DNA from: Eledone cirrhosa
Taxonomy: Eukaryota
Direction of reading: 5' to 3'
Assembly (NCBI GenBank): GCA_964016885.1
Contig: OZ024742.1
Coordinates: 206,770,001-206,834,000, forward strand
DNA: 64,000 nucleotides
The position numbers and the translations under genes were made by a program. The notes under the pieces are model-generated. The model searched no databases. It saw nothing but the letters and a program-made list of their open reading frames with translations, and had not been told where the DNA came from. Every line of letters begins with the position of its first letter. The stretch's first letter is position 1. Shown here piece after piece: positions 9,090-58,257 of the stretch.

Positions 9090-9236
9090 ATGAATGTACA
9101 TATAGTATATTTGATAATATACTGTATGTCTATTTAAAAACATTTTAAAGACCATTTGCTATGAATTTTAAATGGTCTTCAAAATGTTTTAAATAAACAT
9201 ACAGTATATTATCACATATACTGTACATACATTCAT
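9090..9236. repeat. ~147 bp AT-rich fold-back palindrome
   Basis: atgaatgt..tgataatatactgtatgt..aaagaccattt / aaatggtctt..acatacagtatattatca..acattcat. Confidence 0.85.
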
Positions 9237-9606
9237 ATATACATCGCTATTTCAGAGCCCTAATACTAATCCCTATTTACTTAAATTTTTTTTTAGCTAT
9301 TAACTAAATTTTCATTGTTACATTTGTTTGTAATATTGATTAAATAAGACCAGTATTGGTAAAGCTAATTCAACCTGCTCAAAACATCAACCCAAGCCAC
9401 CATTGTACCATTACCTCCTACTTATCTGCTTCTTCCTCTTCATCACCAAACATCCATTCAATCGGTCATCCAACTAACCTTACCACTCAGGTAGTTAAAC
9501 CAGCCGACCAGTCAACCAGCCGGCCAGCCAGCTAGCCATATAGATGGAACTATTTTTAGAGGAATCTATTTGCTGCAACAGAAAGTTTCTTATATGTAAA
9601 TATACG

Positions 9607-9649
<43 letters not shown>

Positions 9650-9653
<4 letters not shown>

Positions 9654-9937
9654 CATTATCATCATCAGCATTTCATTTTACGTCCGCTTTTTCCCTGCTT
9701 GCAAGGGTGGGACGGGAACTGATTCTGGCTTGATTTCTACAGCTGGATGCCCTTCCTAACACCAACCTCATTTACAGTGAGTGCTGGGTGCTTTTTTTTT
9801 CCCGTGGCGCCTACACGTCCACTTTACAGTGGAATGACCCCAGTCCTATCATCTCATTTCTACAGCTGAGTAAACTGGAGCAATGTGAAATAATGTGTTT
9901 GGCTCAAGGAAACAACACATCACCCGGTCTGAGAATT
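9650..9937 (-). mobile_element. Chimeric SINE family B (CORE-like body plus RTE tail), 5'-truncated
   Basis: Reverse complement of 56465-56727. Confidence 0.8.
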
Positions 9938-9953
9938 GTATATATATATATAA

Positions 9954-9993
<40 letters not shown>

Positions 9994-10346
9994 GTGGTAG
10001 TTTTCATTTTTTGTTGGTTAAATGAAACTTGTGGAGAGTGATTATGCAACTGTTAATGAAGAAGCAACTTATCAGATAGATTTCTCAATGTGTATAATTG
10101 AGTCCTGCAAATTAATATTCCAGATGTTAATCCACAAGTATTTTTCAGGTTTCAATAATTCATGGAGTATGTATAAGTTAATATGTTAGGAAAAGCATGC
10201 CTTGTCTGTTTTTCTTAACATATATATCGCTGTAATAACCGTGAATCTGAGAGAAGAATATGTTCAATAAAATCATAATTAACTAATCCTCTCGCAGTTT
10301 CTTTTACCCATAGCCAGCAACTCGTATATATCATCATCATCAGCAT

Positions 10347-10443
<97 letters not shown>

Positions 10444-10509
10444 CATCATCATCATCATCATCATCGTTTAACGTCCATCTTCCACGCTTGCATGGGTTTG
10501 GACGGTATA

Positions 10510-10562
<53 letters not shown>

Positions 10563-10569
<7 letters not shown>

Positions 10570-10730
10570 ATGTAGAAATGGCTTCTACAGGACTAGAACT
10601 GTTTCATTCAAAGGAAATCATTTGAATGAAACAGTACTAATCCTGTAGAAGCCATTTCTACATTAAATATTTATACTCCATTATGTATTGAGTACCTTAC
10701 TCACTGTGGTTACCTCCGAACCCGGGATAC
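10563..10730. mobile_element. Fold-back palindrome (10563-10670) plus one-sided tail, hammerhead 3'-half type
   Basis: Near-perfect inverted repeat with gaaacagttctagtc on -, then tail actccattatgtattgagtacctt. A related fragment lies at 21570-21695. Confidence 0.7.
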
Positions 10731-10749
10731 ACACACACACATATATATA

Positions 10750-10862
10750 TGGGAAAAGAGTCAGGACCCCTCTTTTCCTATTACCCACTCTACTACCCTA
10801 TGTATTGAGTACTTTGGTGCGTTATGGTCCACCTGGTTCCTTACCATGCTTCCTTTGTTTTA
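10750..10862 (+). mobile_element. Collapsed copy of the 27546/56229 palindrome family
   Basis: ggaaaagagtcaggacc/ctcttttcc hairpin plus tail tattacccactctactacccta..ttgagtact.tggtgcgttatggtcca, matching the reverse complement of 56165-56250. Confidence 0.75.
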
Positions 10863-10889
10863 TATATATATATATATATATATACCATC

Positions 10890-10925
<36 letters not shown>

Positions 10926-11725
10926 TAGCAGCACTACCTAGTGTTGCCAGGGTAGGTAATATCTGCTTTGATGAAAAGGTGTTGATCTTAGCGACTGCTT
11001 CTCGATGACTCATCTATTGCCACACACAGGCGATGCGGGGGAGTGTGGTGATGACCTCTATCACTGAGAAACGCGGGTGACTGACGAAGGAGCATGCTGG
11101 GGGAGGGAGTTTCGAATTTGAACGAAATCGGTTGAAAAATATGGGATCTAGAGCCAAAAAGGCGGAATTTTTTTGCGAAAAGGTGGTATTTTCTAATATT
11201 TAAGCTGCTGCCACGCTGTTCCTTAACAAAAAATCCAAAATGTAAAGCCACTTTAAGACGTGAAATAATCAGATCTAGCGTAGTGTAAAATTTGAACAAA
11301 GTAGGTTGATTAATATGGGAGCTAGAGCCGAAAAAGTGGAAATTTAAGTCTAAAAGTGATATTTTTGAATATTTAAGCGGTTGCTACGTCGTCCCTGAAC
11401 AACAAATGCAAAATATAAAGCGATTACAGGATGTGCAATGATAAATTCTATTTTGCTTTAAAATTTGAACGATATCGGTGGCAAAATGTGGGAGCTAGAG
11501 TCAAAAATCTTATTTTTCTATACCTAAAAAAAGGTGACCCCCCTATCGATTTTATCTGCAGAATAACCCCGGAATAAAAAAAAAACGATACGCTTATATA
11601 CAGAAAAGACTCCCCGATGACTAATTTATGAGCCTGTAAAGTTTCATGAAATCGGTCGTAAGATGTAGGCTCCTACAGGTAAAACACAGACACACACACA
11701 CATATCCTTAATTTTATATATATAC

Positions 11726-11728
<3 letters not shown>
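10926..11728 (-). mobile_element. Non-autonomous Helitron-like element with internal subrepeats
   Basis: A|CTAGcagcactacctagtgttgccagggta ... aagtttcatgaaatcgg..acacagac..ttttatatatatacaga|t. Internal repeats atttgaac..tgggagctagagcc occur three times. Confidence 0.75.
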
Positions 11729-11778
<50 letters not shown>

Positions 11779-11814
11779 GGTACGTGTGTTGTATGTTCAT
11801 ATATAAAAGGTCTT

Positions 11815-12470: not shown

Positions 12471-12475
12471 CAATT

Positions 12476-12912
12476 ACATGGCCTGTATAAGTTGCCTGGG
12501 TTCAATATATATATCTTCAGTTGTTTTTAAAAGTTCTTAAATTTATACATAGATATACTTATTGTTATCAAAATCTATACATAGAAAGTTTTATCTTTTT
12601 AGTAATATCTAGACCATATTTACTATATGTTGCTCTGAAATGATATATGAATTTTTACTTACATTATAATTATAATTTATATTATAATTATAATGTAAGT
12701 AAAAATTCATATATTATTTCAGAGCAACATATAGTAAATATGGTCTAGATATTACTAAAAAGATAAAACTTTCTATGTATAGATTTTGATAACAATAAGT
12801 ATATCTATGTATAAATTTGATAATACTAAGTATTTGTATGTATAAATTTAAGAACTTTTAAAAACAACCAAAGATATATATGTTGTACCCAGGCAATTTA
12901 TACAGGCCATGT
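12476..12912. repeat. ~437 bp near-perfect palindrome, with one-sided tail to ~13130
   Basis: acatggcctgtataa..ctagaccatatttactatatgttgctctgaaa / tttcagagcaacatatagtaaatatggtctag..ttatacaggccatgt. Centre at ~12678 with a 4-nt loop; ~30 nt extra in the right arm. Confidence 0.92.
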
Positions 12913-13184
12913 GTAGTATTTTCTATAAACTGTAAATATTGTTAAATGTTCTGGAGAACCGATGCAAACAAGAATTAAATATTTCCTTTTTTTTTTGTTT
13001 ATAATATTACCAGGATTGGTAATTATATGACATATGATATTATTATTGATATTAATTATACTCCAGAAACTCTGTTCAGTGCTTCTAATGTTATAAATTA
13101 ACTTTGTGTTATAAATTAACATTGTTTTTATATATATATATATATAAGGAGACACATGGCTTAGTGGTTAGAGCATTGTAATTA

Positions 13185-14150
13185 ATTATTAGGTTAAACA
13201 TTAGATGAAACAATATATCTTCAAATAATTTGAACTCTTTAAATTAATAAACATTAGAGCTATCTTTTCCTTTAATAGAAGCTTGTTTACATTTCACTTA
13301 TACGAAACATTCAAACTTTACATAAATGTTTAAATTTATATATCTATCCTTATACGATAATAGATTATACATAATATTATACATCTTCTCTGTAAAAATA
13401 CAATTATTTTCACATTCTTAAGCTATATATAGAAGCTATAAATATGTATCTTTGCTCAGCATATCCTAAATGTTTTCATAAGTAAACAAAATCTATATTT
13501 AAACATAACTATTTATGTACTAAATAAATGATTTAATAACGTTATACAATAATCTATTATACTACAATACACTACATTTATAACTGCACTCATCATAAAT
13601 ACACCCGTAAAATACATCCAATAGTATATACATGATATCTTTCACATATTAAATTAATAGTTCTCATTTTAATACATTAATTTATAGTTCTCACCTTAAT
13701 ATTATAAATACTTCCACATTATAAAATTAAATTAATAAAAATAAATATAATTATTTCATTCTTTCTATACCCATGTAAATATGTTTGGATGTATATATGC
13801 ATATTTCTATAAATATTCCGAAAGTAACTTAAAAATTCTTTTTCTTCAATTTTAATAGCAAACCTCTTTTAAAAAACAATTAAAATAATTATTTAAAATA
13901 TATCTAGCATCTAAACTTAGTTTTACCGTTATCCTCATTAATATATTTATCCTGAGTTTTGAATATTTATTCACTATCCACAATGAACTCATAACATTAA
14001 GTTCATATGAGGATATGTCACTATCTTTAAACCAAATATTGTATTCTATCTGACGAAAGCATACCTAAATATTGGTACCCTTGAAATATGTATAATAAAA
14101 TAAATATGGTTTTATAAAGATATTTTCCATTTATTAATATTATTGATATT
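13185..14150 (+). mobile_element. Highly eroded Penelope-like 3' remnant ending in a hammerhead
   Basis: Faint GIY-YIG-like traces (S-I-P-C-K..Y-I across a frameshift at ~13760-13800), followed directly by a hammerhead at 14042. Confidence 0.4.
14042..14102 (+). ncRNA. Type I minimal hammerhead ribozyme motif
   Basis: Stem I tattctat/ataaaata; CTGACGA; stem II aag..tacc/ggta..ctt; GAAA; near-palindromic stem III ATATGTAT; predicted cleavage after A14094. Confidence 0.75.
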
Positions 14151-14165
14151 ATATATGGTGGATTA

Positions 14166-14360
14166 TAGGGCGGTGGATTGACAGTATCGGTAGCGGGTTG
14201 GACGCCATGCTTTCCAGCATAGTTACGTCCCTTTACGATCTGAGTTCAAATCCCGCTGAGGTTGACTTTGCCTTTCATCCTTACGGGGTTGATAAAATAA
14301 AGTACCAGTAATGCACTGGGTTATTGCTGGCCTTGTGCCTAAAGTAGAAACAATTATTGA
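14166..14360 (+). mobile_element. SINE family A
   Basis: Homolog of 6198-6422. Confidence 0.85.
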
Positions 14361-15217: not shown

Positions 15218-15721
15218 TAAACTCTGAAGTGGAGAATTATTCGGTTTCCTAGTTAGAATTTTAGTCTACGACTTCAGTTATACCATTTACGAGGTTTTGT
15301 CTTTGTTCTCTACGCTCCACATATGACGTATTATCTTCGTTTTTTCCGTTCATTGCCAGAGAACCTCTCTATGAACCATCTAAGAGAATATTAGTCTACG
15401 ACTTCTTTTATACCATAAATGTGGTTCTGTCTTTGTGTGTAATTGTTTTTCACTGCTCCAAATAATGACGTATTATATTCGTTTTTTCCCATTCTTTGCC
15501 AGGGACCAAAGTATCGTCTTCCTATCTTCCTCCAGTTGCAACGTTTTTTGAAATATTCACTTCTGCGTTCACAGATTGACTTTGTCAGTTTCAGAAGATC
15601 CCGTTAAGGGTGAAAGCAGCGATTCTTTGCTTAAACTTTAAACTGTTATTTTAATAAATATATATAAGTATATATATATATATGTATATATATATACTTA
15701 TATATATTTATTAAAATAACA
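15218..15721 (+). mobile_element. Non-coding PLE-LTR/retrozyme-like element with internal ~128 bp duplication and degenerate hammerhead (15587-15637)
   Basis: ttagtctacgacttc..tgacgtattat..ttgccag occurs twice. agttt-CAGAAGA-tccc/gggt-GAAA-gca/tgc-TT-aaact. The 3' end is mirrored across (TA)n at 15644-15721. Confidence 0.6.
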
Positions 15722-15774
<53 letters not shown>

Positions 15775-15776
<2 letters not shown>

Positions 15777-16493: not shown

Positions 16494-16525
<32 letters not shown>

Positions 16526-20483: not shown

Positions 20484-20685
20484 TATATATATATATATAT
20501 GTATATATATAACTGAACAAAAAAGAAAAACTAACACAGATATATACATATATGTGTTTAAAACGTAAGGGACCAGATTCGCTAAGGTGAAAAGAATACT
20601 AACTACAGACAATAGGGTTTGCTAGACTCAATTTAAGAATAAATCAAGAATAATAAATACAAACCAGAATTGTCGTAACTACCAA

Positions 20686-20767
20686 TCACCCGGACAGTTT
20701 CGATAATACTGTTTCGCAATATTAATTGTGAAGAGGAATACCAAAATTCTAGCTCATCAGCGGGTGA
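20686..20767 (-). ncRNA. Type I hammerhead ribozyme with intact canonical core
   Basis: Minus strand: tcacccg-CTGATGA-G..(long stem II region)..C-GAAA-cagt/actg-TC-cgggtga. Perfect 7-bp stem I and GUC cleavage triplet, inside a ~400 bp non-coding element (20510-20930) flanked by (TA)n. Confidence 0.85.
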
Positions 20768-20940
20768 AGAATTATTAGTATCCTGGTCACTTCTAAGTAT
20801 ATTAGAAAACTGGATAGTGTGCGTATATGTAACGCACATGGTGCCAGAGCTTAGTGTGTCTCGCAAACTCGTGCCACTAAAAATAGCAGCCGGGTTTACT
20901 CGAGTTTCTAACTCAATACATGCCTTTGATATATATATAT

Positions 20941-20997
<57 letters not shown>

Positions 20998-21127
20998 GAG
21001 GTTATATTTAATTTGTTGGGATACAACATGCAAAATATTTTTATAACTGATATAAAGCACTCAACAAATTATTGGAGTAAATATACAATATATTAACAAA
21101 TGGAAACTATATTTATAAAACCATATT

Positions 21128-21193
21128 TATTTCATTATACATATTTCAAGGGCCACCAAGGCAGATTATGGTGCGCTTTCATCAGATAAAATA
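21128..21193 (-). ncRNA. Type I minimal hammerhead ribozyme motif
   Basis: Reverse-complement copy of 21348-21413. Confidence 0.8.
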
Positions 21194-21347
21194 TAATATG
21201 GATTAGTTTTATAAATAAATATTGACATACCCTGAAAAAATGCAACCTTCAAGGTTGGAGTCTCCTGGATAGTCAGGAGACTCCAACCATGAAGGTTGCA
21301 TTTTTTCAGGGTATGTCAATATTTATTTATAAAACTAATCCATATTA

Positions 21348-21413
21348 TATTTTATCTGATGAAAGCGCACCATAATCTGCCTTGGTGGCCCTTGAAATAT
21401 GTATAATGAAATA
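21348..21413 (+). ncRNA. Type I minimal hammerhead ribozyme motif
   Basis: tattttat-CTGATGA-aagcgcacca/tggtggccctt-GAAA-tatgtat-A-atgaaata; 8-bp stem I with one G.U pair. Confidence 0.8.
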
Positions 21414-21495
21414 AATATGGTTTTATAAATATAGTTTCCATTTGTTAATATATTGTATATATATATTTCTATATATATATATACATATATATATG

Positions 21496-21531
<36 letters not shown>

Positions 21532-22858
21532 AATGTATAATATATATATATATATATATATAATATGTAAGTCCTTGAGTGGTGTTGAGAAGATAACCAC
21601 AGTTGAATAAGGTACTCAACACGTAGCTAGAGCATAGGCATCTTTATTATCATATGAATGAAACAGTTCTAGTCCTGTAGACGTTGTTTCTATATATACA
21701 ATAACGTATCATGTATAATATATATATAGCCTCGACTGTAACAAAACTCAAGCATGGCCTTAATAAAGAATGACACACACACATACGCACAGACACACAT
21801 ACACACAATTTAGGAACATTAGTGATGAGATTTTCAAGATATACTATTTTCTTTCTCCTGCTTCTTCTTTCTGTTTCTCTCTTTCTTTCTCTCCCTTGAA
21901 ATTATACAGCTGGATTAAGAACCAACTAATTAAATGAATAAATGAATGGAAGAATAAACAAATGAATTTACTAGCTACTACAACTAAGTAGACTGTCATG
22001 CAGAATGACAGATTGATGGAATGAATTAACAAACACTAATAGCAATGACTATTTATTAAGCAAATGAGCGAGAGGACAGAGAATGTTTTAATGAAAGAAA
22101 TACTGAATGAAATGTCTGAATGAGTGTGGAATGAATGAGTACCTGATTGAATGAGCAACAGAAAGATCTATTGAAGGAAAATAATTTCATGAGAGAAGAA
22201 GCAGCTGAAAGGATTTTGAGTAAATGATTCCAGGTAAAAATAAATAATATGCAGAATGGCTGATATGGGTGTAGGATATGTGAAGTGGTGGGGTTGAACC
22301 CTGGTAAATGAGAGAGTGAGGTCTAACAATTTACTGCTTGGATGACTACTATTGTTACTACCACCACCTCCACCACCATCACTACCACCATTATTGCTGC
22401 TACTTCTGCTGTTGCTACCTCATTGCTTTCTGTACTTTCTTCATCTAATTTCTTGTTCTAATTAACCTCCTAACTCTCTTCTTTCTTCACCCTTCATCAC
22501 CCCCACCACATTCATTACTCTAGTAGTGGCTATATTTCTTCACCCCCATTTTCCTAAAGAACTCAAAAATGTTTCCTATCTGGCACAAGGCCAGATATTT
22601 AGCGGTTTATTAAATTAACCCCAATATATGATTTATATTTTATTTTTTTGATTTCTGAAATGTAAAGTTGACTTCAACAAGATTTGAGTTAGAACAAATG
22701 CCATGAGGCATTTTGTCTACTTTTCTAATGATTCTATTAAGTCCAGTGCTTAAAACCATTTGGTGGAAATAGTTAAGCACAGGACTGTAAAACCTCTTTT
22801 AATTCTGAATTCTTGGTGAATATCAGTCAGTCAACAGTCAATGAAAGAGCCCTACATG

Positions 22859-26300: not shown

Positions 26301-27342
26301 TGATATGATACTGCGTGCACTTTGTCTTGGAAAAAGACAGAATGATTACAGCTGGAATGCATTTGATTATAAAGTATGTTATAAGGACTGCTATATAATT
26401 TTGCATAGTATTTTAAAGTTCCTGAATGAGTCTTGTAGCTATGTTTCCTAATTAATTGTGCATCTGTTTATTAATTTACCTCTTTTAACTGCATCTCTTA
26501 CATAATATTTTAATTATAAAACCATTTATTATTTCAGTACATAAAGCTTTTATCTAGATATAATCTGTGAATTGCACCTGTCAACCTAAATTATTGCTTT
26601 TCTTTCTTCTTGATTGTTCAAGTGTGCAACATCTTGCATGTTGTCTTGCACTTGCAATCCATTGCAAAATATCTTTCTTTAAATCTAATTATATGCTGTA
26701 TAAAATATTATTTAATAAATCCATGTTGTATTTATTTTATATGTTGTCAGTTGTATGTTATGTTTTTCCCTGTTTTGTGTGGTGATGTATGGCTCACAGT
26801 GATGTTTGGTGATGTGTAGTGATGTGTGGTTTACCATAACACTTTATTTGATGGTTGTTGTTTAGCCGCAGATTAACTGACTGAGCAGACCTATAATCAA
26901 AATTGTTCCAAAGAGGATTATATTCTCTTGTTAGGAAAATCTATATCTACATTATTTAATTTGCCTTTTTCTTTTTCAAGATAGTATGATGTGATTTAAG
27001 AGATATTTAGTTACTATTTCTAGCAGATCAAGTGATTGTATGGAAGTAGCTGCACTAGCATAACATTGTTTTACATTAGAGCAATCAGTTATTCTTGGTT
27101 TCTCTCACAAGTGTTAAACCTTATCTAGCCAGTCACCTATATAGGTAGTGAAATGGCTTTATGTTGATTTCATCACTAAATGAAACAGAAATAATCTTAA
27201 TAAAATAATGTATCATTTCGATCTGATGTATCAAGTACCTTAGTTTAATTATGGTTATCTACCAAACTACTATATATATATATATATATATGCAAGCATA
27301 GAAAGGGGTAGATGTAAAAATGATGATGATGATTATGATATA

Positions 27343-27424
27343 TATTGGGTTATAACATAAATTCCCGCCAATTTTTATTAAGAAGTTTTATAACAACGGC
27401 GGGAATTCATGTTACAACCCAATA
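27343..27424. mobile_element. Mariner-like mini-MITE
   Basis: TA|ttgggttataacataaattcccgcc ... ggcgggaattcatgttacaacccaa|TA. Confidence 0.75.
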
Positions 27425-27432
27425 TATATATC

Positions 27433-27537
27433 TACAGTGTGTCCCCAAAAATGTATTCACACTTCAACAGCATTCTAATAAATATTGCCTGTACAGGTAA
27501 TCAAAATGTGTATACATTTTTGGGGGTAAAACCTGTA
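27433..27537. mobile_element. Tc1/mariner-like mini-MITE
   Basis: TA|cag..ccccaaaaatgtattcaca ... tgtgtatacatttttgggg..ctg|TA. Confidence 0.7.
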
Positions 27538-27545
27538 TGTATATA

Positions 27546-27750
27546 AAGAGTCAGGACCCTGACGGCTGATCTCTTGTTGTATCAACAACTAGTTCCAGAC
27601 TGAATCAGTCTGGAACTAGTTGTTGAAATGGCAAGAGCTCAGCCATTGGGTCCCAACTCTTGAGAATATAACCATACTCTACTATCCCAAGTATCAAGTA
27701 ATATGTTTAATAATGGCCTAACCAGTTTCAAACTGAACCCACCCTGGTTT
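27546..27750. mobile_element. Fold-back palindrome (27546-27661) plus tail, same family as 56165-56380
   Basis: caacaactagttccagactga-a-tcagtctggaactagttgttgaaatggcaagagctcagcc; tail actctactatcccaagtatcaagta. Confidence 0.75.
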
Positions 27751-29489: not shown

Positions 29490-30310
29490 ACAAGCATTCT
29501 GAGGAAGAAACCGTTTGTAGCCACCAGAGGTAGTGGATCTTTGAACTTTTTCAGCCCAGTTCTTATTCTAGCTGTTGCACAAACAAAACATCCAGCCCCG
29601 CTGCTGATTAAGCCATGTAGATAACAGAAGCTTGTGTACCCATAGTTTAAATTTTGAACACTAAATGGAATATTTTATCAACTCCTTTTGCATATTGAGC
29701 ACAGCCATTTCGCTGACAGAATTAGTGCTTTGTCTTCTTTCTTACCTACTAGCACTTTAGTCTTTGCTAATTGACTTTGAGGGATTTTGATTCCATTTTG
29801 GAATTTCTCTAATTTCTTTACAGATTCAGCTAAGATAACTCTATCATCTGCATATACATGTTCCCACAGGCAACCAGTCTTAAACTCCTCTATTGTGGCC
29901 TAGATAACTACATCTCTTGTATACCCATAGTTGAAATTACTTCAAACTATACTCAGTGTTAACTCTGAACTTGCTGACTGTTTTTCTGTACATGGCTTGT
30001 ATAGCTCTCATCAGCCTCTCATCTGCCCCTAATTTTGTAAGAGCCCACCAGATTATGGAACATGGTACTCTGTCAAAGGTTTTCTCAAGCTCAACAAATG
30101 CAGAAGTACTTAGTAAGTCTCTGTATCTAGATACAGGGACTTACTAAGTTCCTCTGCAGTTCTCTCATAAAAAAGAAGTTATCAGTGGTACCTCTTTCTG
30201 GCTAAAAGCTGAACTGCATTTCATCTAAGTTAACTCAATCCCTAATCAGTTGTGTTAGAATTCTTACAGTAACTTTCATGACCTGGTCCATCAAAGTGAT
30301 GCCATGAGAC
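29490..30310 (-). pseudogene. Degenerate RTE-like RT fragment
   Basis: Homologous to 19620-20480 (FVELEKTFDRVP, LRLVACGNMYMQMI equivalent region, FCYL). Confidence 0.75.
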
Positions 30311-42079: not shown

Positions 42080-42420
42080 GGGTAAAGACCTCCTTTGATC
42101 ATGAATGACCATGGGATTTGCACCTAGAAAGTTTCCCTCCTAGGCACAGATCAGGGCAAGGTTATTTGTGGAAGACCTGCAGTTGTCCATACCTACCAGT
42201 CACCCCTCTCCATGTCACCATTATTATCCAATGGAAAAGAAAAGGCCGATACAGCTGGGTACCAGTGACATTGCAACTCATTTCTACAGTTGAATAAACT
42301 GGAGCAATGTGAAATAAAGTTTTGCTCAAGAACACAACACAAAGCCCGGTCTGAGAATCAAACTCACAACCTTATGATTGTAAGCCCGACGCTCTAACCA
42401 CTAAGCCATGCACCTTCATG
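42080..42420 (-). mobile_element. tRNA/CORE-like SINE (family B head, different tail)
   Basis: Minus strand catggcttagtggttagagc..gtgagtttgattctcagacc..ttcttgagcaaaactttatttcacattgctccag. Confidence 0.75.
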
Positions 42421-44332
42421 GTTCTATATAAGGACCACATAATATATGAAACTGATAAGAACAGACACTACACTTTGATCTTTGCTAAAAGACTTAGGTG
42501 ATTCTGACAACAAGGCCTTACTCAGTGCTAATATTTCTATAGAGTGGATTAGGAATATTCATAGAGTGTCAGATAACGTGCTTTGTGGAATATAATTACA
42601 TCCCTCTATGCTCTGATTTCAAATTCCACCAAGGTTAGCTTTGCCTTTCATTCTTACAGTGTCAATAAAATAAAGTACTAGTAATGCACTGGGGTCCATT
42701 TAATTGACTTTCCCCTCCACCTAATTTGTTGGCCTAGTGCCTAAAACAGAAACCACTATTTCAATTGAATGATAGCAACATCTCTTCCCCTTGAAAAAAA
42801 ACTAGTTTCCATCTTTTTAAACAATTGATCCTTTCCACTATGTTTCAATCAGAATCGTTTTCAGAATGGAATGACTTTGTCTCAAATGATAGCAGCCACA
42901 ATATACATTGCTTCAATCCTTATTTTATCACTACAAAATCCTCACTAGTCAAGGGTGCCTCTACATAGTCGAAATCTCTCACAATTCCTGCTCTGTTGTC
43001 TTAATTAAGGAAGGATAATGTGATCTTAAATGTACTATCAAAAAATAAGAAATGGTGATGGTCACACCTGGAAGACTATTGAACACATGTCTGCATTATC
43101 TGAGCTCACCTGGGCTAAACAACAACAGCAACTCATGCTAAGATTGTCAAAATCTCAGAATCTGGAAGCTGGGCAAAATTATAACAATTATTTTAAAGCC
43201 CAACAAATTCACATGTGGTATAATATGACACATCACAGTCATATGTCCCTTCTGAAAAATCTAGAAAATCTTATCCTTTGTCTCAGAAAACTACACATAT
43301 AGCAATATCACTACCATAGCTGTTGTTATTATCATGCCCCTGTTCATAAGCACTAGCATGTATATCCACTTCTTATTCATCAACATTGTTAGCATCAACC
43401 TTATAATTGCCATCTTTATTACCAGTGCAGAAATCAGTAACCATTTCTAATAACTCCACTCCTCTTTATTTCCGCACCCACATCATGTTCATTATCATCA
43501 TTAGAATCACCAACAGCAGCAAAATATATTTCATCACGATTGCTGTCGTCATCATCGTCATCATCATGCTTTGTCATCAATAAAGTATTTCTATGCTTCT
43601 ATCAGTATTAGCCATCATGACGAGACTGCTGTTTCAAAAAAGAAAACAATAATGACAACCAAAACAACAAAATACAACTAGCCTCAGGCATATCTTACAT
43701 TCTTCAAAATAGCTTGGTCTTAGATAACCCTTTACAACAACCCTGTTCTCCTTTATATCTAGTTCATTTTCTCTGGCACATTTTTCCATTTCGATTTGGA
43801 GTAAACAAGAAGGTCTTTGTAGAGTGTATGGAAATAGAATGGCAACAATTTTATATTTACTCCTCTCTCTTATCACAGGGATGGGATTGGGGAGCTAAGG
43901 GACAGGGAACCCATTATTGCTTTTTATTTTTTTAAATTAAGAATATTACTTTAGATTAAACTTAACTGAATAATCTAATCTTACAAAATATTATTTTATA
44001 GCCAGTGTGGTCTGAAATATTGAGAAAGGAACAACAATAATAAATAAAACAAAATAAAGAAAGAAATGGTGGCATCAGATTGATTGTAGAAATGGAAATT
44101 TACATTTGCAATCAACATGTTTCCAACCAAACCTAAGAGGGAACTTCTATGCATTGCTAGAAACATTATCACCCCCATCTCAACCAGCAAAATCATCAGC
44201 TACAGCAGTAACACTACCACAATTACCACCAGCAACACCAACACTACCACTAACACAACAACACCATTAATTAGAAAGGCACTGTCTGTGCTGAAAATAG
44301 GAACCAAATATTCTGCAAATCACACTCTATTA

Positions 44333-45170: not shown

Positions 45171-46218
45171 CAACCTAATTGTGGAACCTGTATATGATCA
45201 TTCAGCATGATAGAAATAATAACCAAATTTCCCATAAATATTTTTTTTAAGGCAGGATATGTGGTTTCATGTCTACAAAACTAAGACAGGATAATTACAG
45301 GTGAAAACTTTTACAATTCTGTCTGTTCAATTCAAACAGACCTAGGATAAAATACCACCACTACAGCCACTACCAGTAGTTTTATATGTTCTAATTTGGA
45401 GTAAACATCATGAATAAAACAAATAAGATCAGGTTAGATGGCTGAGGATCAAATGGGAATTATGTAATAAATGTAAATATCAACAAAACATTTATTGACA
45501 TTAGGGTATAGGTCATAGCTGTGTGGTTAAGAAGTTCATATTGCAACAATGTAGTTCTGAGCTGAATCCAATGACAGCTGTCTGCACAAGCTTATAATCA
45601 TCATGTCCTTCTTGTGAACATTGCATATCTCAGACTACAATGTTTTCCTCATTTTCAAAGACAGAAGGTGCAATTTGAGGTAGATTTGGAAACTATTTCT
45701 AGTAGGTCAAGTGACTATATAGAGGCTCCCTCATTTCTCCAATCTATCTGTTATTATGAGCCACACAAAAATAACAAATTATATTGCTGCTGAAATATAC
45801 GAAATGTTTTGTATTGACTTTCACTTGGATTTAGATTATGGTTATTAGACAATTAACAAGCAGTAGAAAACAATGCAGGCATGTGGCTTAGTGGTTATAG
45901 AACTGGATTCGCAATCATGAGGTTGTGAGTTTAATTCTTGGGTAGGGTGATGTATTGTGTCTTTGAGCAAGACACTTTATTTCACATTGTTCCTTCGGTA
46001 GCTAGTATCAGTAATGGAAAGATCAATGGAAACAATGTTTCCTTGGTCCGATTTGATGAGGTCCACTTTACTCAGCAAGCGAAAGAGGTCTCAGATCTTG
46101 TCGATCGAGCAGAGCGAGAGAAAACAGTTATTAATATTATTAATCAAAGACAGACAAAGATAATATCAAAGAACTAACATTCAAAATGATATCACAAAAC
46201 CTTTCACTTTATATTTTA

Positions 46219-46835
46219 CTAGCAGTGGTACCCGGCATTGCACAGGATATGGTATTTTGGAACGCGAGCCGCCAACAGACCTAATCGTGAAAAAACTGCA
46301 TGCCTGGACAAAATGTAAAGAAAATAAACTGGATACTCTCATGGCTGGATAATCTTTAAGATGTTCCTCGATGAAGCAGGAAAAATGCAGGTTTTCACCT
46401 AATGCGGGCCCTAGGGGATCAAGAAAAAGAATTTTTTTATGTGCATAATATGCCATGGAATTTCGGGAAAATCGGTTACTGGTAATGCCTCAAAAAAGCC
46501 CTAAAAAGCTGAAAAAATGAAGTTTTTTCAACTAATGCGGGCCCTAGGCCATAAAAAGTTGGATCTTCTTTGCTCATGGTATGAAGAAGAGACTGACTAA
46601 TATATAGTTACAATTTCAAGGAAATCGGTCTGACGTAACGCCTCAAAAAACCCCTAAAAAGCCGAAAAAACGCAGTTTTTCACCTAATGCGGGCCCTAGG
46701 GGATCAAAAGGTTATGTGCATAACACTCCCTGAAACATAAGTAATACACATATAAAGTTTGAAAAAAATCGGTTGGGTACTTCTCGAGTTTTAGGGATTC
46801 AAACACACAGACATCCTCAGTTTTATATATATAGA
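46219..46835 (-). mobile_element. Non-autonomous Helitron with three ~140 bp internal subrepeats
   Basis: A|CTAGcagtggtacccggcattgcacagga ... acagacatcctcagttttatatatataga|t; ctaatgcgggccctagg occurs three times. Confidence 0.85.
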
Positions 46836-48439
46836 TTATCAGTGAAACCATAATAGTGTACCCTGCTATTGCTAATAGTGGTCCTTTGAGATCAAATAAA
46901 ATATGTGTAAAACAATTTCATTGTATTAATTTGTGTTTGGTTTAAGGTTGTGAGGAAGTTTTAATGTCTGCCCAAAAGATAATAATGAAAATTATTGCGT
47001 ACAGTTCTCAGGTGCACTACAATCAGATAACATTTTCCAAACCTTCCATAATACTGTTATTAAAAATTGATATTTTTGTCAATAGAGTAAATTCTGTATT
47101 ATGACTACAGAATATCAAGGAACTAAATTTACATAATTGTTTCTACTTTAGGCACAAGGCCAGCAATTATCCAGTGCATTACTGGTACTTTATTTTATCG
47201 ACCCTGTAAGGATGAAAGGCAAAGTCAACATAATGAAATACACTTTTCACTGTATTCTATATTCAAATAATGTAAATTGTGGAGTTTTCTCCCCAGTTTA
47301 ACTTGACTAATGTTAATCATTAAGATTATTATCATCATTTAGGGTGTAATTTTAATGAATTTTGTCGCTCACTACACTGAATATGTTAGCGTTTACTTTT
47401 CAATAAATGTCTCATGAAAGATAATTCTAGTGGTAAGGTGCCAGGATAACTAATGAAATAGAGATAACCCCATAATCTCAACATGCATGACATGAATGTG
47501 ACCACTTTAATTCCACCATGCAAGTGTCTGATATATTTCTCCAGTCTCAAGCAGTTGGAAGGCTAAATTAACCATGACTACATTACAACTGAAAATGTTC
47601 ACAACTACGTGATTTAGTTCATTTGTTTATCACCTCACTAACAAAATGACCTCGATTCAATATTTACATGATCAACAGTAAAGAACAGTTTCTGGGCAAA
47701 AATGATTGAAAGAAATATAATTGCTAACACAACAAATATGCTATGGATGGTTTTATATACATTTGGCTGATTATGTTTCATGTAGTTGTAAGGCAAGATG
47801 TTGTTTTATCGTGCTGACTTGCCACATAAATAAATTGCTTTGTTAAAAGATAAGTTTAGACTCAGAAACATGCTTTCTAATACATAAACAAATTGCTTCT
47901 TTATTGAGTAACATAGTAATGTTGGATGTTTGTATTTGTTCTATTAATATCTATATTATGTAAGGTTCAGTGAGGCTATAATCTGTGCCAATAAAATATC
48001 TGGAAATCAGACATAGTGGCTGGTCTCTTCTAGAAGGAAGAAGATACAGCTATAGAGATACATTTAGTTTTATATAAGTATTTACACATGGAAACCGCAA
48101 GAGTTGCTTTATACACTCTTCCAAATGTTGTTCAAACAAATTTCAACTGAGAAAACAAAGTGTTATAGGTTTGGTAATCTTTTAGAAATAAGACAACACC
48201 AACAATAACAAACAACATTATATCCTTTTCAGATCTCTTTATATTTAAAAGCAATTTGATGATATTTATAAAAGGGAAGTTATTAACTACTTATGAATCA
48301 CTGTTTTAGCTTCTTTTATATGAGAGTTCACTGAACATTTGACACAACTATCTGATCAAATTACTGACAAGCATGGCAATGGACAGTATAATCAAACATT
48401 TATACATTTATACTTTGAAAACAAATATATATTCTTTCT

Positions 48440-52274: not shown

Positions 52275-52599
52275 AATCCTGCCATGATCTGCAATCCAAC
52301 ATGGAAAGGCTTGGAACCCAATCATGTACAAACCGATGTTAACTAGTTCATTCTGGATAGTTTTAGAGGAGACCATAGTATTTAACATGTTGAGAACACG
52401 ATTCTATCCATGTTAACTATGGATAGGTTTAGAGGTCGTCACACTATTTAACATGCTAAGAACATACAATACCTGATAATAATGATTCTGCTAATAATTA
52501 CTGCAATAAATATGAAATAGGTAGAAATGATTAATAGAAGTTTCTATATATACTTGTGATATATTACTGAAGCACTTCCATTGTGTATTCAGGTAATAC

Positions 52600-54420
52600 A
52601 CTGAATTAAAGAGTATAAATTCAGATCACCAGTAATTACATGCCCCGCATCCTGGTAGCAGAATCTAGAACTTTCACAATCGCATAACCCATCGCAAGCC
52701 CTACTGAATTCCTCAGTGCTAATATTCACTTGATATGAATAACTGACACAAATTCTCTATCCCTTACCTCCTCGGGCAAGCATCCATGTACCTTCCTATT
52801 TCTAAAAATCGAATTCAAGCCTAACGTATTCAGTAATTTATTAACGAATGGAATCCTGAAAAATTCCATGCTGGCCTTTTTATCTTTATCCTTTGTGTCC
52901 TTTAACTATCTTCCAAAAACTAACCTCGGATGTCCTTTCTTCGCACCTTCCCATCAAATCTCTTAGTTTGCTCTTCGAACATGATCTAAGCCACACAAAA
53001 CACTGTTAACGATCTCTGGACCTATAGATCTTGAACAGTTTCTTCCAACCATTATCTTACATAATTATCTCACATAATATCAAATCTATGAGATTTTGAT
53101 TATATTTATTTTGAGAACAATACCTTAACGTCAGTATGAGCGGCAGGTTTATGGTTTGAACAGAAAGAGGTGAGAAAATTCTGGCCGGACACAGTCAGTT
53201 TAAATGCTAAAGGGTTAATCACTACCCTCCAAATATTTCCTTAAGAAAGATTTGAATTTCACCAACACCATTACACTGATTAATAAATCCAACATTGAAA
53301 TAATTAATTACTCCAGAAAATTCCTCCAGTTTATTTATGACACAGCTTGAATCAAAATTGATGGAAAAGAATTATTTGATATCTCTATGGGCTGGTATAA
53401 CGGCGCTAAACCACACAAGCTTGTAGCACTTTACATTCCAAATATTTTGAAAAAAATTCCCTACAGTAAAAAGCAGAATCTAAAAGGACAACACAAATTA
53501 TTAGTGGATGCAGACTTTATGGATTTAGGAAGGTCTTAATAAAAGCATTTAATGAAATACATGTGCGTATAGCACGAGAAACTAATCTTATTATTGTAAA
53601 TTCCTTGAATACTATGCTAAGTATTGCATATAAACAATTCCAAAGCTGACTTTAGTCAAGCTGTAATGGTTAACAAAGCAAGAGAGTTCCTTGAAATAAT
53701 GTCCTACCACTTCCTGGTGAACAACAAATATCACAAAATATCTAACCGAAACATTGCCAAAGGGAACTACTCCGCATAGGAAAAATTTGTTACTTGCATT
53801 AAAATTCACAGTAGTAAAGAAAATACTGATGATAAAACTTCAAATACAGTATCTACGTGCAACTGTGCATTAGTCCTCATAGGCATCCACTTGATGGTAG
53901 CTCCCTTGCGAAATTTGTAATTATTTTGTTAAAATTCACTTAAGAGTCAACTCTTCAAAACTGGTTGTATCATGGCCTGGAGGCCATGGAGCATATCCCA
54001 CAATGAAATATGATGAGATGTACAGACATACCTAATAGGCATTCCTAAGTGGATCAAAGGCAATGCATATTCCAAAGCTATTGGTTATACCGTCGCCAAC
54101 TACTCAAGACCTGGGACAAATCCTACATTGGACTGACCGAAAACAGCTTCAAATCATGAATTCATCAACATAATCATTCCTTTGTTATTCCTTAAAGATG
54201 CAGCACGACAGCTTCAGCAAAGTATATTATGTTTCAAACCACATTGGCCATTCCTTGGCTACATATGACCTTATCGGTATGGAAGCTTCTTGTCTAAAGG
54301 CTCATTGTGCTTATCGGAGAAAATGCTTATGCTGCATCTAAATTTAAAAAAAAAATCTCAGGTCAAAGATGTTAAATTGTATACATGAAATACATTTTAG
54401 CCCATTATAAACCAGGCACA
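52600..54420 (+). pseudogene. Eroded Penelope-like element (RT plus GIY-YIG endonuclease), interrupted by a MITE at ~53050-53218
   Basis: Hand translation gives IEIINYSRK..ELFDISMGWYNGAKPHKLVALYI (cf. FDVTMGSYDGAExCELVGLY), ETNLIIVNSLN, HFLVNNKYHKISNRN, TCNC..PLDGSSL, YIGLTENSFK..HNHSF..AKYI, LCLSEK. The 5' boundary is approximate. Confidence 0.8.
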
Positions 54421-54645
54421 TTAAAATCATTTTGTTTTGCTTGGAAGTTGAAATGTATAGTGAAACTTTGCAGTCATATCAGTCACTTCACAATTTCGCT
54501 GCAACATTTGTAAATTTATAATTAAATTTTTATCACAGATACATACAAATGTGTGCATATATATATATATGTGTGTGTGCATATATATATGTGTATATAT
54601 ATGTATATATATATATATATATATATGTGTGGGTGTGTGTGGGTG

Positions 54646-55003
54646 TGTATAAAAATAACATTAAGAAAAATGGTGTAATTACATTATAATTATTTCTATG
54701 GCTACCCTTATGCAATCCAAGATATGCTTGCTGAGCACACAAGAAGAACATGCTTTTGCCTGCAGCATATCACATAAACGAATATTCATCTGAGGAATGG
54801 GCTCCCATACCATTATCAAATGCAAATACTGCATCTTGGATTGCAGTAGGGTAGCCATAGAAATAATTATAATGAATAAAAGCTTTATGTAATCACATCA
54901 TCTTTCTTAATGTTATTTTTATACATAATCTCCATTGTAACTACACACAACGAATGTAAAGAGCTTTCTCCTGCTTTTACCAAAATAAATTTTTTACTGA
55001 ACA
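54646..55003 (+). mobile_element. Hammerhead element with inverted partial copy (arms 54646-54724 / 54833-54925) and tail
   Basis: Inverted arms visible; flanked by (TA)/(TG) repeats. Confidence 0.8.
54783..54878 (+). ncRNA. Type I minimal hammerhead ribozyme motif
   Basis: tattcat-CTGAGGA-atgg..ccc..tactgca/tgcagta..ggg..ccat-a-GAAA-taattat-A-atgaata. Perfect 7-bp stem I and palindromic stem III ATAATTAT; one extra A before GAAA. Confidence 0.75.
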
Positions 55004-55013
55004 CTATATATAT

Positions 55014-55378
55014 ATAGGATGAGAAAATGTCAAGTAGTTTCAGATGTTAAAGTCCTTTATTGATAACGCTGTGATACATATTTCAATGATGACAGTGGAC
55101 ACCGTGCCTTTAGAATGGGAGAGGGCTTCAAGAACGCCATCTTTGTCTATTCCGTTGTCGTTTTAATTTAGATTGCCTCGAGAAGGTAACCTTATTATGT
55201 AAGAAGTTGTCTGATGAGATAATGCTACTCGTTAGGCAGAATAGCGTGGCTACTGTCGTCATTGAAATATGTATCACAACTTTATAAATAAAGGACTGAA
55301 ACTACTTCGCATTTTCCTTTCCTATGTGGAAAAAGTACGTAGAATGCTTGAATTGAATTGCATCAATGTTAACCGTAA

Positions 55379-55380
<2 letters not shown>
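55014..55380 (+). mobile_element. Hammerhead element with inverted partial copy (arms ~55014-55102 / ~55246-55325) and tail
   Basis: tgtgatacatatttcaatgatgacagt vs actgtcgtcattgaaatatgtatcaca; (TA)n flanks. Confidence 0.8.
55205..55281 (+). ncRNA. Type I minimal hammerhead ribozyme motif
   Basis: agttgt-CTGATGA-gat..att-GAAA-tatgtat-C-acaact; perfect 6-bp stem I, AUC triplet. Confidence 0.8.
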
Positions 55381-55430
<50 letters not shown>

Positions 55431-55436
<6 letters not shown>

Positions 55437-56121
55437 GAATAATCGAGTATCGGAAAATCAGCTCACGAATTAACGATAAACAATATCCGATATGAGTGGC
55501 AGAGGGCTCAATAATTTGGATAAATCAGAGCTATAACTATCGTTAAAATACCAACACATAGAGATTATGCCTAAAATCACCCGTTCAGCCGAAAAAGAAC
55601 GACCAGGAAGATTCGGGTCACTCAAATAAAATATCAATAAATCAATAAATTAAATGAATGTAAAAAACTTACCCGGACCCGCTAGAAGGGTGTTAAATCT
55701 AGCTTCTTGGGTTTCTGCAATTCCTTAATCCGTTCACTATCAGCCCACATAAAAATATATAAGACTTCTAGAGAAGGAGTGGACCGGAAGAGCTTTATCA
55801 ACGGGTTCCGTCCGATAATAAAGAAGTCACCTTTAGCCAGACACGCACATGGTGCCCAGCAAGGGAGATAACCTCTATATTAGCGAAAACATTTTCGGTA
55901 ATGTGGAAATCATGTAGGAATACAAAATATCACATATCGAATCAGAGTGCTCAATAGACATGTTAAAATAAACAGGAGCTATTCATCAGTCAATAGAATC
56001 GACAAAAAATTATCAATAAAATTAACTGGTCAATAGCTAGGTCTAGAGCTAAATATAATAGAATAATCGAGTATCGGAAAATCAGCTCACGAATTAACGA
56101 TAAACAATATCCGATATGAGT

Positions 56122-56123
<2 letters not shown>
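55431..56123 (-). mobile_element. Retrozyme-like 624-bp unit with 69-bp terminal direct repeats and a degenerate hammerhead (55671-55806)
   Basis: 55431-55499 is identical to 56055-56123. Minus strand acccg-TTGATAA..GAAA-ccc..ggg-TC-cgggt. Embedded in (TA)n. Confidence 0.75.
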
Positions 56124-56164
<41 letters not shown>

Positions 56165-56167
<3 letters not shown>

Positions 56168-56380
56168 CGAAGGAAGTGCGGTAAGGACCAGATGGACCAT
56201 AACGCACCAGAGTACTCAATAGTTAGGGTAGTAGAGTGGGTAATTGGAAAATGTATGACCCCCGATGGCAGAGCTCAAGCCGTTTCGACGGCTATTTCTG
56301 GACTCAGTCCAGAAATAGCTGTCGAAACGGCTTGAGCTCTGCCGTCGGGGTCATACATTTTCCTATTACCCACACTACTA
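56165..56380. mobile_element. Fold-back palindrome (56229-56380) of hammerhead 3' halves plus tail
   Basis: cGAAACggc-ttgagctct-gccGTC-ggggtcata mirrored about ggact-c-agtcc. Confidence 0.8.
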
Positions 56381-56404
56381 TATTTTGAATAATATATATA
56401 TATA

Positions 56405-56727
56405 TGGAGGCACATGGCTTAGTGGTTAGAGCATTGGCTTTGCAATGGAAGGTCTGTGAGTTCAATTCTCAGACCGGTTGATGTGTTGTTTCCTTGAGCA
56501 AGACACTTTATTTCAGATTGCTCCAGTTTACTCAGCTGTAGAAATGAGATGATAGGGACTGCAAAGTGGTCGTGGAGGTACCACGGCTAAAAAGCACTCA
56601 GCACTCACTGTAAATGAGGTTGGTGTTAGGAAGGGCATCCAGCTGTAGAAATCAAGCCAGATTCAGTTCCCGTCCCACCCTTACAAGCAGGGAAAAGCGG
56701 ACGTAAAATGATGATGATGATGATGAT
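56405..56727 (+). mobile_element. Chimeric SINE family B, full length
   Basis: ggaggcacatggcttagtggttagagc (A box), gttcaattc (B box), CORE-like body, RTE tail and (GAT)n. Confidence 0.88.
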
Positions 56728-56787
56728 ATATATATATATTATTCAAAATATTAATAAATGAAGACATTCATATAATCAAAATATAGG

Positions 56788-56851
56788 TTTTATTTTATAT
56801 ATTTCGAAGGTACTGTGCCGTTTTTTCAGTACGTCCTCGTCAGATAAAATA
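56788..56851 (-). ncRNA. Hammerhead motif with intact core and mutated cleavage site
   Basis: Minus strand tattttat-CTGACGA-ggacgtactg/cagtaccttc-GAAA-tatataa-a-ataaaa. U16.1 appears changed to A; the inverted arm at 56920-56967 keeps the T. Confidence 0.65.
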
Positions 56852-56967
56852 CATGAATTGATGTATGACATACCTCAACGGTCTTGATGGTTGGTTCAAT
56901 TCCAGTATTGACTGCCAATACGAGGACGTACTGAAAAAACAGCACAGTACCATCGAAATATATATAA

Positions 56968-58067
56968 CTAGCAGTCGTACCCGGCGTTGCACGGGATAAG
57001 GTATTGTAAAATATATAACCGACTTAGCTAAGCTTAGTATTGCCACAACCACGGCTAGCAAAGAAGTAAGGGTCTGGTGGTACGTAAGTAAGCAACACTG
57101 TGGCTTAAAACGTGAGGAAGAAGTTGTGTGCACTTACCAACTGTTTTGGGAATGAGTGTGAGATTTGTCTTGAGCAAGGGTGGCAGAATAACTGGAGGCA
57201 GCAGACAGCCAGACATACAGACAGATATTATAAGGGCACATTCTGGACGCAGAGCAAATTGTAAGAAGTGACTTAATGCAGACAGCCAGACATACAGACA
57301 GATATTATAACGGCGCGACGTTATATGTATGTATCTATCTAAAAAGAGAAAGACTAAGAATTATAGAGAGAGATCGCTAAATCGCCTACTGCGGTCCCTA
57401 GGGCATTGTAAATTTGAAATTTCTTTTGCTCAGAACACTCCCTGAAACATAAGTATTACATGTGTAATGTTTGAAAACAGTCGGTTGGGTGCTTCTCTAG
57501 TTTTAGGGATTCAAACTCACACACAGACAGACATCCTCAGTTTTATATATATAGACTAGCAGAAAACCACCATGTGGGCGGTTTTCTGCTAGTCTATATA
57601 TCTAAAACAGAGAATGTCTGTCTGTCTGTCTGTCAGCTCACTAAAACTTGAGAACCATCCAACCGATTGTTTTCAAACTTTAGATATGTGAGTGTTTTGA
57701 GCAAAAATTATTTCAAATTTTCAATGCCCTAGGGACCGCATTAGGCGATTTAGCGTTCTCTCTATATAATTCTTAGTCTTTCTTTTTAGATAGATACATA
57801 GATATAACGTTGCGCCCTTATAATATCTGTCTGTATGTCTGCCTGTCTGCATTACGTCATTATGACTCGCTCAGTGTGTGTGTGTATATATATATGTATC
57901 GTAATGCAGACAGCACGACATAGCTTTCCTTCCCCTCTTCCGGCGTCTCTCTCTCTCCCTCCAGCTATCCCCCTCTTGTAGTCTGTCTCTTTCTTTCACT
58001 CTCACTCTCTATCTCTACGCGTCGGACAGACAGACAGAGAAATTGCTGGTTATATATTATAAGGAGA
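56968..58067. mobile_element. Helitron cluster with ~580 bp internal palindrome (57275-57852)
   Basis: A|CTAGcagtcgtacccggcgttgcacggg ... tataGA|CTAG..hairpin..CTAG|TCtata ...; a final 5' end with (acag)n at ~58020-58067. Confidence 0.85.
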
Positions 58068-58200
58068 TAAATTTTGAATGTCTTCATTTATTAATATTTT
58101 GAATAATATTAATAACTCCAGAAAACTTAATTGTAGAGTGCTTTTAATCTATTGTAAAACTATATTAATTGAGTACTCAATAAACCATATTAACCTTTGG

Positions 58201-58257
<57 letters not shown>

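Follow-up and report, generated by a model that had tools for sequence, protein, structure and literature searches.

We identified a set of short units that combine type-I hammerhead ribozyme motifs with fold-back palindromes and lie beside (TA)n microsatellites in a 64,000-nt stretch of Eledone cirrhosa DNA (NCBI GenBank assembly GCA_964016885.1, contig OZ024742.1, positions 206,770,001 to 206,834,000 of the forward strand). This whole stretch, referred to as the window and numbered from its first letter, is animal-type DNA with many microsatellites and retroelement fragments. An earlier reading of the sequence (the original prediction) had described about nine type-I hammerheads of one geometry, five core-less palindromes and arm-plus-one-sided-tail units, and had taken the whole set as non-autonomous ribozyme retroelements mobilised by the reverse transcriptase (RT) and GIY-YIG endonuclease of a Penelope-like element (PLE). 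In the list of units below, a + or - after a position gives the strand, "3' half" stands for the GAAA-stem III-UH part of a hammerhead, "tail" for the extension of one arm to a TA run, and families carry the site numbers of the original prediction.

9090-9236, no strand assigned: palindrome outside the system, with no half motif, tail hairpin or adjacent TA run.
10563-10727, no strand assigned: fold-back unit with a 3' half in each arm (10628+, 10605-) and a right-arm tail with a tail motif at 10676.
10750-10860, plus strand: very short 56229-family stub between TA runs, a mini fold-back with tail hairpin 10788, 88.5% alike over 87 nt to 56166-56251.
12476-13125, no strand assigned: 437-nt AT-rich fold-back with a one-sided extension ending in a tail hairpin (13061) and a TA run; no passing hammerhead, membership uncertain.
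14010-14156, plus strand: single decayed copy of the 21128 family, core 14050.
15580-15670, plus strand: hammerhead that has decayed, U4 of its core (15592) being A; a TA run comes next.
20520-20930, minus strand: single unit whose hammerhead (core 20760) is complete, with 4 bp in stem III and cleavage predicted after 20693.
20997-21463, no strand assigned: young fold-back of a high-copy family, two 190-nt arms 98-99% alike with minimal complete hammerheads (21185-, 21356+); the tail (20997-21077), with hairpin, is on the left arm only.
21563-21700, no strand assigned: 10563-family stub, absent from the original prediction, with the tail on the minus strand (hairpin 21632) and a hammerhead 3' half on the plus strand (21660).
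27546-27750, no strand assigned: fold-back with a 3' half (27625+) and tail hairpin 27677, 70% alike over 89 nt to 56229.
54646-55004, no strand assigned: fold-back with a complete hammerhead (54790+) and 63-nt stem II; the left arm stops in stem II, the tail is on the right.
55014-55380, no strand assigned: fold-back with a complete hammerhead (55211+); the left arm stops in stem II, the tail is on the right.
55430-56123, minus strand: 624-nt monomer without an open reading frame (ORF) plus an identical 70-nt terminal repeat; the core (55801) is of the U3-A8 type and cleavage is predicted after 55676.
56167-56380, no strand assigned: fold-back with a 3' half (56324+) and a left-arm tail with hairpin (56236-).
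56735-58203, no strand assigned: fold-back of the 21128 superfamily; the left-arm core (56843-) has lost U16.1, and the right arm begins inside the core, is split by a nested insertion (about 56967-58050) and then continues into a tail (hairpin 58116).

The window was scanned for hammerheads with a descriptor that requires at least 5 pairs in stem I, at least 2 in stem II and, as a third element, a palindromic loop III or else at least 3 pairs in stem III. The core boxes, the UH site and three stems with stem I open, which characterize a type-I hammerhead, were found, and all nine predicted sites show this geometry. The nine are not equally intact: five are complete canonical motifs (cores 21356+, 21185-, 54790+, 55211+ and 20760-, corresponding to the predicted sites 21348, 21128, 54783, 55205 and 20686, respectively), one is a core variant and three are decayed. 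Five complete motifs compare with a mean of 0.013 in 300 local dinucleotide shuffles of the window, none of which reached five, so the motif frequency departs from that of shuffled controls; earlier descriptor settings agreed with the five-motif result (0/150 shuffles in one of them). Site 55671 proved to be the 3' half of a motif with its core at 55801-, in which U3-A8 replaces C3-G8 and the 83-nt stem II folds alone at -22.5 kcal/mol; the descriptor for this variant was added post hoc, once the motif was known, and one such match occurred in 4 of 300 shuffles. Among the decayed sites, 15587 (core 15592+) carries the U4 to A change, a type of match seen in 2/300 shuffles, 14042 (core 14050+) keeps 7 of 8 stem I positions paired and is a 79% copy of the 21128 family over 161 nt, and 56788 (core 56843-) lacks U16.1.

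Stem pairing was counted by script; MAFFT alignments across families were too poor for covariation counts. Across five families within the window, 29 of 30 cognate stem I pairs are formed, against a mean of 13.5 for mismatched sets, and one of 120 permutations was as high. In the units that bear a tail, the distance from the predicted cut site to the outer TA run is about 100-250 nt, which places the hammerhead in the terminal, pseudo-long-terminal-repeat (pLTR) region. The Rfam models that had been proposed as a check gave no hammerhead family at E ≤ 5 on the window, nor at E ≤ 10 on two sub-regions; the stems II of the window are long and atypical. A hammerhead DNA pattern had no match in viral contigs and 18 matches in metagenome contigs, none of them with the full stem set (stem I of 7-8 pairs plus stem II) and all taken as chance. 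One strict hammerhead-like match in the window, 52716-, was likewise set aside as chance: it lies inside a CxC coding remnant and fails the later descriptor.

All five palindromes of the original prediction exist (9090-9236, 10566-10667, 12476-12912, 27546-27661 and 56229-56380), but those at 10563, 27546 and 56229 turned out to carry the hammerhead 3' half, reading outward, and the one at 9090 is unrelated. The fold-back centres of the first three lie 11-22 nt 5' of GAAA, and these palindromes are therefore hammerhead units truncated within stem II. When the 3' half (GAAA, stem III, UH) was searched for alone, 17 matches resulted, several of them palindrome by-products, compared to a shuffle mean of 5.2 and a maximum of 12 in 200 shuffles. 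Five half motifs (10628+, 10605-, 21660+, 27625+ and 56324+) are each contained in one arm and read outward, and 27625 and 56324 show a compensatory pair in stem III. Of 19 arms with a GAAA half (one mutated), 10 stop in stem II or the core and 9 retain the whole motif. The palindrome at 12476 has the tail hairpin at 13061 and no hammerhead match. The one at 9090 has no half motif, no tail hairpin and no TA run within 130 nt; it is not part of the hammerhead system.

The arrangement of arms and a one-sided tail beside (TA)n was borne out. The units are head-to-head 5'-truncated copies with their 3' ends outward and an extra tail on one arm, set in (TA)n with TA runs at the unit ends, and most arms are 8-27% diverged. 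Symmetric terminal inverted repeats with fixed ends were not found, as tails are one-sided and centres copy-specific, and no unit contains a tandem pair of hammerheads on the same strand. An end of the 56788 right arm at the cleavage site was considered and ruled out: the nested insertion interrupts the arm, which resumes near 58050, and the unit continues at 58075-58203 past the insertion, 58075-58109 being identical to 56736-56770 at 35 of 35 positions. The window also holds fold-backs without hammerhead features (27338-27429, 30096-30161 and 57269-57859), so fold-back shape by itself is not diagnostic. Neither a hammerhead half nor a tail hairpin is present in the palindromes 9090-9236 and 30096-30161, and two small TA-flanked inverted-repeat elements at 27338-27540, resembling miniature inverted-repeat transposable elements (MITEs), adjoin the 27546 unit. 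The nested insertion at 56967-58050 has (GTCT)n runs and CTAG-type ends and is itself a 591-nt fold-back (57269-57859) around a small palindrome, so fold-backs in the window are not confined to the hammerhead families; related pieces lie at 46218-46850 and near 10926-11724. We take it to resemble non-autonomous Helitrons. Other observations next to the units are a tail-to-tail 25-nt inverted pair around the TA run after the 15587 motif (15644-15721), a 130-nt direct duplication before that motif (15255-15505), and 21 letters at 56380-56400 that repeat the 3' end of the 56788 unit exactly, though oppositely oriented, and flank a pair of short interspersed elements (SINEs), possibly a tiny stub.

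One arm of each pair continues for some 50-85 nt until it reaches a TA run. Where arm and tail meet, most tails carry a bulged hairpin with a 3-4-bp outer stem, a variable inner stem and a 2-nt 3' bulge (10788, 13061, 21077, 21632, 27677, 55530, 56236 and 58116, with differing inner stems); the tails at 10676, 54930 and 55956 and that of the 55205 unit deviate. A strict hairpin descriptor has all seven of its matches within units, each 51-68 nt ahead of a TA run; a TA run within 90 nt is found at about 10% of positions. A short tail sequence motif is not enriched by itself (8 compared to a mean of 3.2 and a maximum of 9), but its position is, 6 of 8 sitting 44-61 nt before a TA run. Since the hairpin motif was defined from the units of the window, its clustering before TA runs is suggestive only. 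An independent hint is that, as judged by eye, 4 of 6 novel Hydra consensuses in the supplement of PMC8557442 carry the same hairpin at an end (Hydra-2_Amil, Hydra-1_Ajap, Hydra-2_Ajap and, with one mismatch, Hydra-1_Crog). One Naiad 3' end has it too, so that the hairpin does not fix the clade. In Hydra-1_Ajap it stands at the 5' start, which fits the description of the tail as the beginning of the next tandem copy, the tail corresponding to the segment that separates two stem-loop RT start sites (PMC11167929). The bulged hairpin is likely a putative protein-binding or initiation signal.

The 21128 family was followed in public reads using the stretch 20995-21275 at 80% likeness in 4 of 12 runs (X1, X4, X5 and X10, without X6-X9), of which X1 may be the source sample of the window. 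Matches were found in 6704 contigs of X1, 840 contigs of X5, 30601 raw reads of X10 and 64 contigs of X4, a run with another organism label; the family is high-copy and present in a second organism. Many pieces end at 21081-21095 directly into (TA)n and represent tail-less ends, and loose ends at 21148 and 21152 show two further stem II hairpin sequences. Opposite-strand joints occur at at least 8 different place pairs, some of them in raw reads of another sample, so the fold-back point differs between copies; some joints lie 3' of the core, indicating that core-less fold-backs arise within a hammerhead family. Among 40 of the 87 substitution rows, on which these statements rest, the 13 core letters, stem I and basal stem II are unaffected, and all four hairpin substitutions are in the bulge or loop, a further independent hint in favour of the hairpin. 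A loop III change at 21140 (671,581 of 1,578,801 depth in X1) preserves the palindrome. Summed depth in X1, which is not equal to copy number, peaks at 3.46 million at 21115-24, is about 0.9 million at the core and falls from 697,884 at 21225-34 to 34,723 at 21245-54 and 903 at 21265-74. No single read or contig spans the entire stretch.

The unit at 55430-56123 differs from the fold-backs in that its identical 70-nt ends are spaced 624 nt apart, so that it comprises 1.11 monomers and a single hammerhead. Taken as a partial tandem, it implies a full monomer of 624 nt that is ORF-less. Three frames gave no Pfam match, and a suspected GIY-YIG remnant in it was dropped as unsupported for the same reason. 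A tail hairpin (55530) precedes the TA run by 76 nt, another motif of the tail type (55956) lies near the 5' end, and the unit shares stem I, the stem II base and a 14-nt block with the 20760 unit. It is the best non-autonomous candidate, and its family, likely without an ORF, would be mobilised in trans. Non-autonomy, originally proposed for the whole set, is thus supported for this unit and suggested for the 21128 family; most other units could equally be truncated ends of autonomous PLEs, and none has the tandem layout of a retrozyme.

Two decayed coding remnants lie between the units:

52500-52960, minus strand: decayed ORF remnant, Naiad CxC-like by eye (12/23 to Naiad_Obim).
53351-54330, plus strand: decayed RT-then-GIY-YIG ORF remnant, Hydra-clade-like by eye.

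Their identities come from comparison by eye with a published PLE alignment and carry no computed score. Across stops and frameshifts the second resembles RT motif 4 (15 of 27 identities to Hydra-1_Ajap), RT motif 6, the Cys linker and the GIY-YIG domain of the Hydra alignment; the signatures compared were the C-terminal GIY-YIG, the CxC-X5-C linker, DKT and RWK. The linker and endonuclease motifs, seen by eye in 53849-54330, are not tied to the units. The likeness of the first to the Octopus Naiad proteins, along with SINE shapes in the window, pointed to an octopus as the probable source. The two remnants stand back to back, immediately ahead of the cluster where hammerhead units are densest, an arrangement that suggests repeated PLE insertion into one (TA)n-rich hotspot.

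We consider it probable (roughly 0.8) that the units are short 5'-truncated insertions of the hammerhead-bearing ends of several PLE families, probably copied into (TA)n by the RT and GIY-YIG endonuclease of a PLE of the Hydra or a similar clade. The PLE association, proposed originally, is supported because a hammerhead near the 3' end, an inverted 5'-truncated partner, a one-sided tail and a (TA)n target match the published architecture of these elements (PMC8557442, PMC3846280). The published PLE work suggests that the endonuclease would nick AT-rich DNA, and that RT would then start inside the RNA at one of two sites, leaving tail-bearing or tail-less ends (PMC11167929). RT would stop early, often in stem II, where our own analysis points to a stall, and a second short copy would be added head to head, likely through fold-back priming of the complementary DNA (self-priming, PMC3846280). 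The bulged hairpin may act as the binding or start signal. Hammerhead cleavage is not needed in vitro (PMC11167929). The predicted fold of a 21078-21463 transcript is a single duplex at -307 kcal/mol; fold-back copies of this kind would therefore not form a ribozyme and are probably inactive debris.

The nearest known system is the Hydra clade, which combines a hammerhead with a (TA)n target and includes Hydra-1_Obim from Octopus bimaculoides (Craig et al. 2021, PMC8557442). It shares with the units the type-I hammerhead near the 3' end, the (TA)n target, inverted 5'-truncated copies, a tail, an extra letter either side of stem II (as in 15592 and 55801 of the window), the bulged hairpin described above and, by eye only, the fit of the remnant 53351-54330 to its alignment. 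It differs in that no ORF is joined to the units of the window, whose stem II reaches 83 nt and whose loop III has either 6 palindromic nt or 8-9 nt on a 3-4-bp stem. The Naiad clade is without canonical hammerheads, which the units carry, and only the remnant 52500-52960 is Naiad-like (PMC8557442). The minimal hammerheads of metazoan PLEs (Cervera and De la Pena 2014, PMC4209133) share the palindromic loop III suited to dimers, the U3-A8 core, known there from Schistosoma PLEs, many unrelated consensus families per genome and motif pairs 100-700 bp apart on opposite strands; unlike them, some window families have a full 3-4-bp stem III, and the parts of that source available do not report the lineage. 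PLE insertions (Arkhipova et al. 2013, PMC3846280; Frangieh et al. 2024, PMC11167929) show the same head-to-head inverted copies, palindromic junctions, optional tail, mobilisation in trans by terminal sequences and stem-loop at the RT start region, but concern Penelope/Poseidon with an AC-rich stem-loop, whereas the hairpin of the window is a different, bulged motif at the tail start. Animal non-LTR retrozymes (Cervera and De la Pena 2020, PMC7229834; Li et al. 2026, bioRxiv) are likewise non-coding type-I hammerhead units of a few hundred bases, with the 624-nt monomer in their size range; theirs are head-to-tail tandems with at least two hammerheads and circular RNAs, whereas the units here are single or inverted and known from DNA alone.

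Several observations weigh against the assignment to truncated PLE ends. Database searches with both ORF remnants were blank, no unit is physically joined to a PLE ORF, and a TA/TG run and an opposite arm stand between the Hydra-like remnant and the 54783 unit. Target-site duplications are unreadable within (TA)n. The strict hairpin descriptor is mildly enriched (7 compared to a mean of 3.2, with 11 of 300 shuffles) and the loose one is not (29 compared to 23.4). The hammerheads differ from the published Hydra ones, including Hydra-1_Obim, in their longer stem II and loop III, the tails measure 50-85 nt instead of 30-40 bp, and a 12-letter motif of the 21128 family is absent from the available supplement of PMC8557442. 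In the 21128 family a 5-nt stem I deletion at 21190 is present in 455 of 2883 X10 reads, and the other 47 substitution rows fall outside the statements on substitutions. Finally, monomer folds mostly lack the hammerhead as the lowest-energy form, which is expected because minimal motifs are said to need dimers (PMC4209133).

The alternative that survives best is that all families are dedicated non-autonomous ribozyme retroelements, i.e., retrozyme-like monomers with circular RNA intermediates, and not truncated ends of coding PLEs. It draws on the ORF-less 1.11 monomers of 624 nt at 55430-56123, on the X1 depth (697,884 to 34,723 to 903), which falls as if most 21128 copies began 55-65 nt 5' of the core, and on the proposal that animal retrozymes are derivatives of PLE pLTRs (bioRxiv 10.64898/2026.07.22.740005). 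The defining retrozyme layout of two tandem hammerheads on one strand, however, occurs in no unit, and the fall in depth may stem from subfamily divergence and from the compared stretch ending there, some contigs continuing past 21247 with variant sequence; we regard this explanation as possible but doubtful. That the fold-backs are MITE or fold-back DNA transposons, or products of a general replication template switch at (TA)n that merely include hammerhead-like sequence, would account for the hammerhead-less fold-backs of the window (9090, 27338, 30096 and 57269), but the arms are unequal, the tail is one-sided, centres differ among copies of one family and hammerhead halves always read outward. 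This second alternative is improbable overall, being largely refuted for the hammerhead-bearing units and less so for 9090 and 12476. Chance matches in AT-rich DNA or palindromes produced by assembly or amplification, to which the match 52716- in coding sequence, the 18 of 18 metagenome matches without a full stem set and the lack of a read or contig piece spanning the whole 21128 stretch might point, are highly unlikely given that no shuffle in 300 reached five complete motifs, that most arms are 8-27% diverged and that raw reads of another sample show the opposite-strand joints in the 21128 family.

Other retroelements in the window include a long, little-decayed non-LTR element at 60904-64000 on the plus strand (RVT_1, E 2e-30), presumably R4/Dong-like, to which an RT fragment at 3340-4450 on the plus strand is related (RVT_1, E 6e-24). 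The element at 30830-36300 on the minus strand has an endonuclease (PF03372, weak) and RVT_1 (E 2e-16), and we assume that it is probably L1/Tx1-like. A weak match to U2 small nuclear RNA at 42373-42504 on the minus strand (37.5 bits, below the gathering score of 46) lies over a SINE-like head.

The kind of element found here is already known from the octopus lineage through Hydra-1_Obim; PLEs with an inverted 5'-truncated copy, a one-sided tail and a (TA)n bias are described in the same source (PMC8557442). For O. vulgaris, 31 recently active Penelope-like families are reported, the main text of PMC13282606 being without mention of hammerheads in the parts available. The window families are new families of this known kind. 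The literature searched, with Repbase, Dfam, subscription journals and some supplements outside it, held no description of the bulged hairpin or of these particular families, and the bulged tail hairpin may be new. It is conceivable, although we hold this only tentatively, that the bulged stem-loop is a shared RNA-binding and RT-start signal of (TA)n-targeting Penelope enzymes, that many unrelated ORF-less hammerhead mini-elements in octopus genomes, one of them with a U3-A8 core, hijack these enzymes through the hairpin, and that stem II is a stop and fold-back hotspot.

As PLE debris the units are ordinary, since a clade with these traits has been reported from octopus. The points of interest are the tail hairpin, the ORF-less monomer with its U3-A8 core and the breakpoints in stem II. 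If transcribed, the fold-backs would also form long RNA duplexes. The value of the units lies in the natural data that they provide on the choice of RT start sites by PLEs, on the one-sided tail and on inverted partners; and if the tail hairpin is a cis signal across Hydra and Naiad families, it would offer a small target for in vitro work and a way to classify unlabelled cephalopod repeats.

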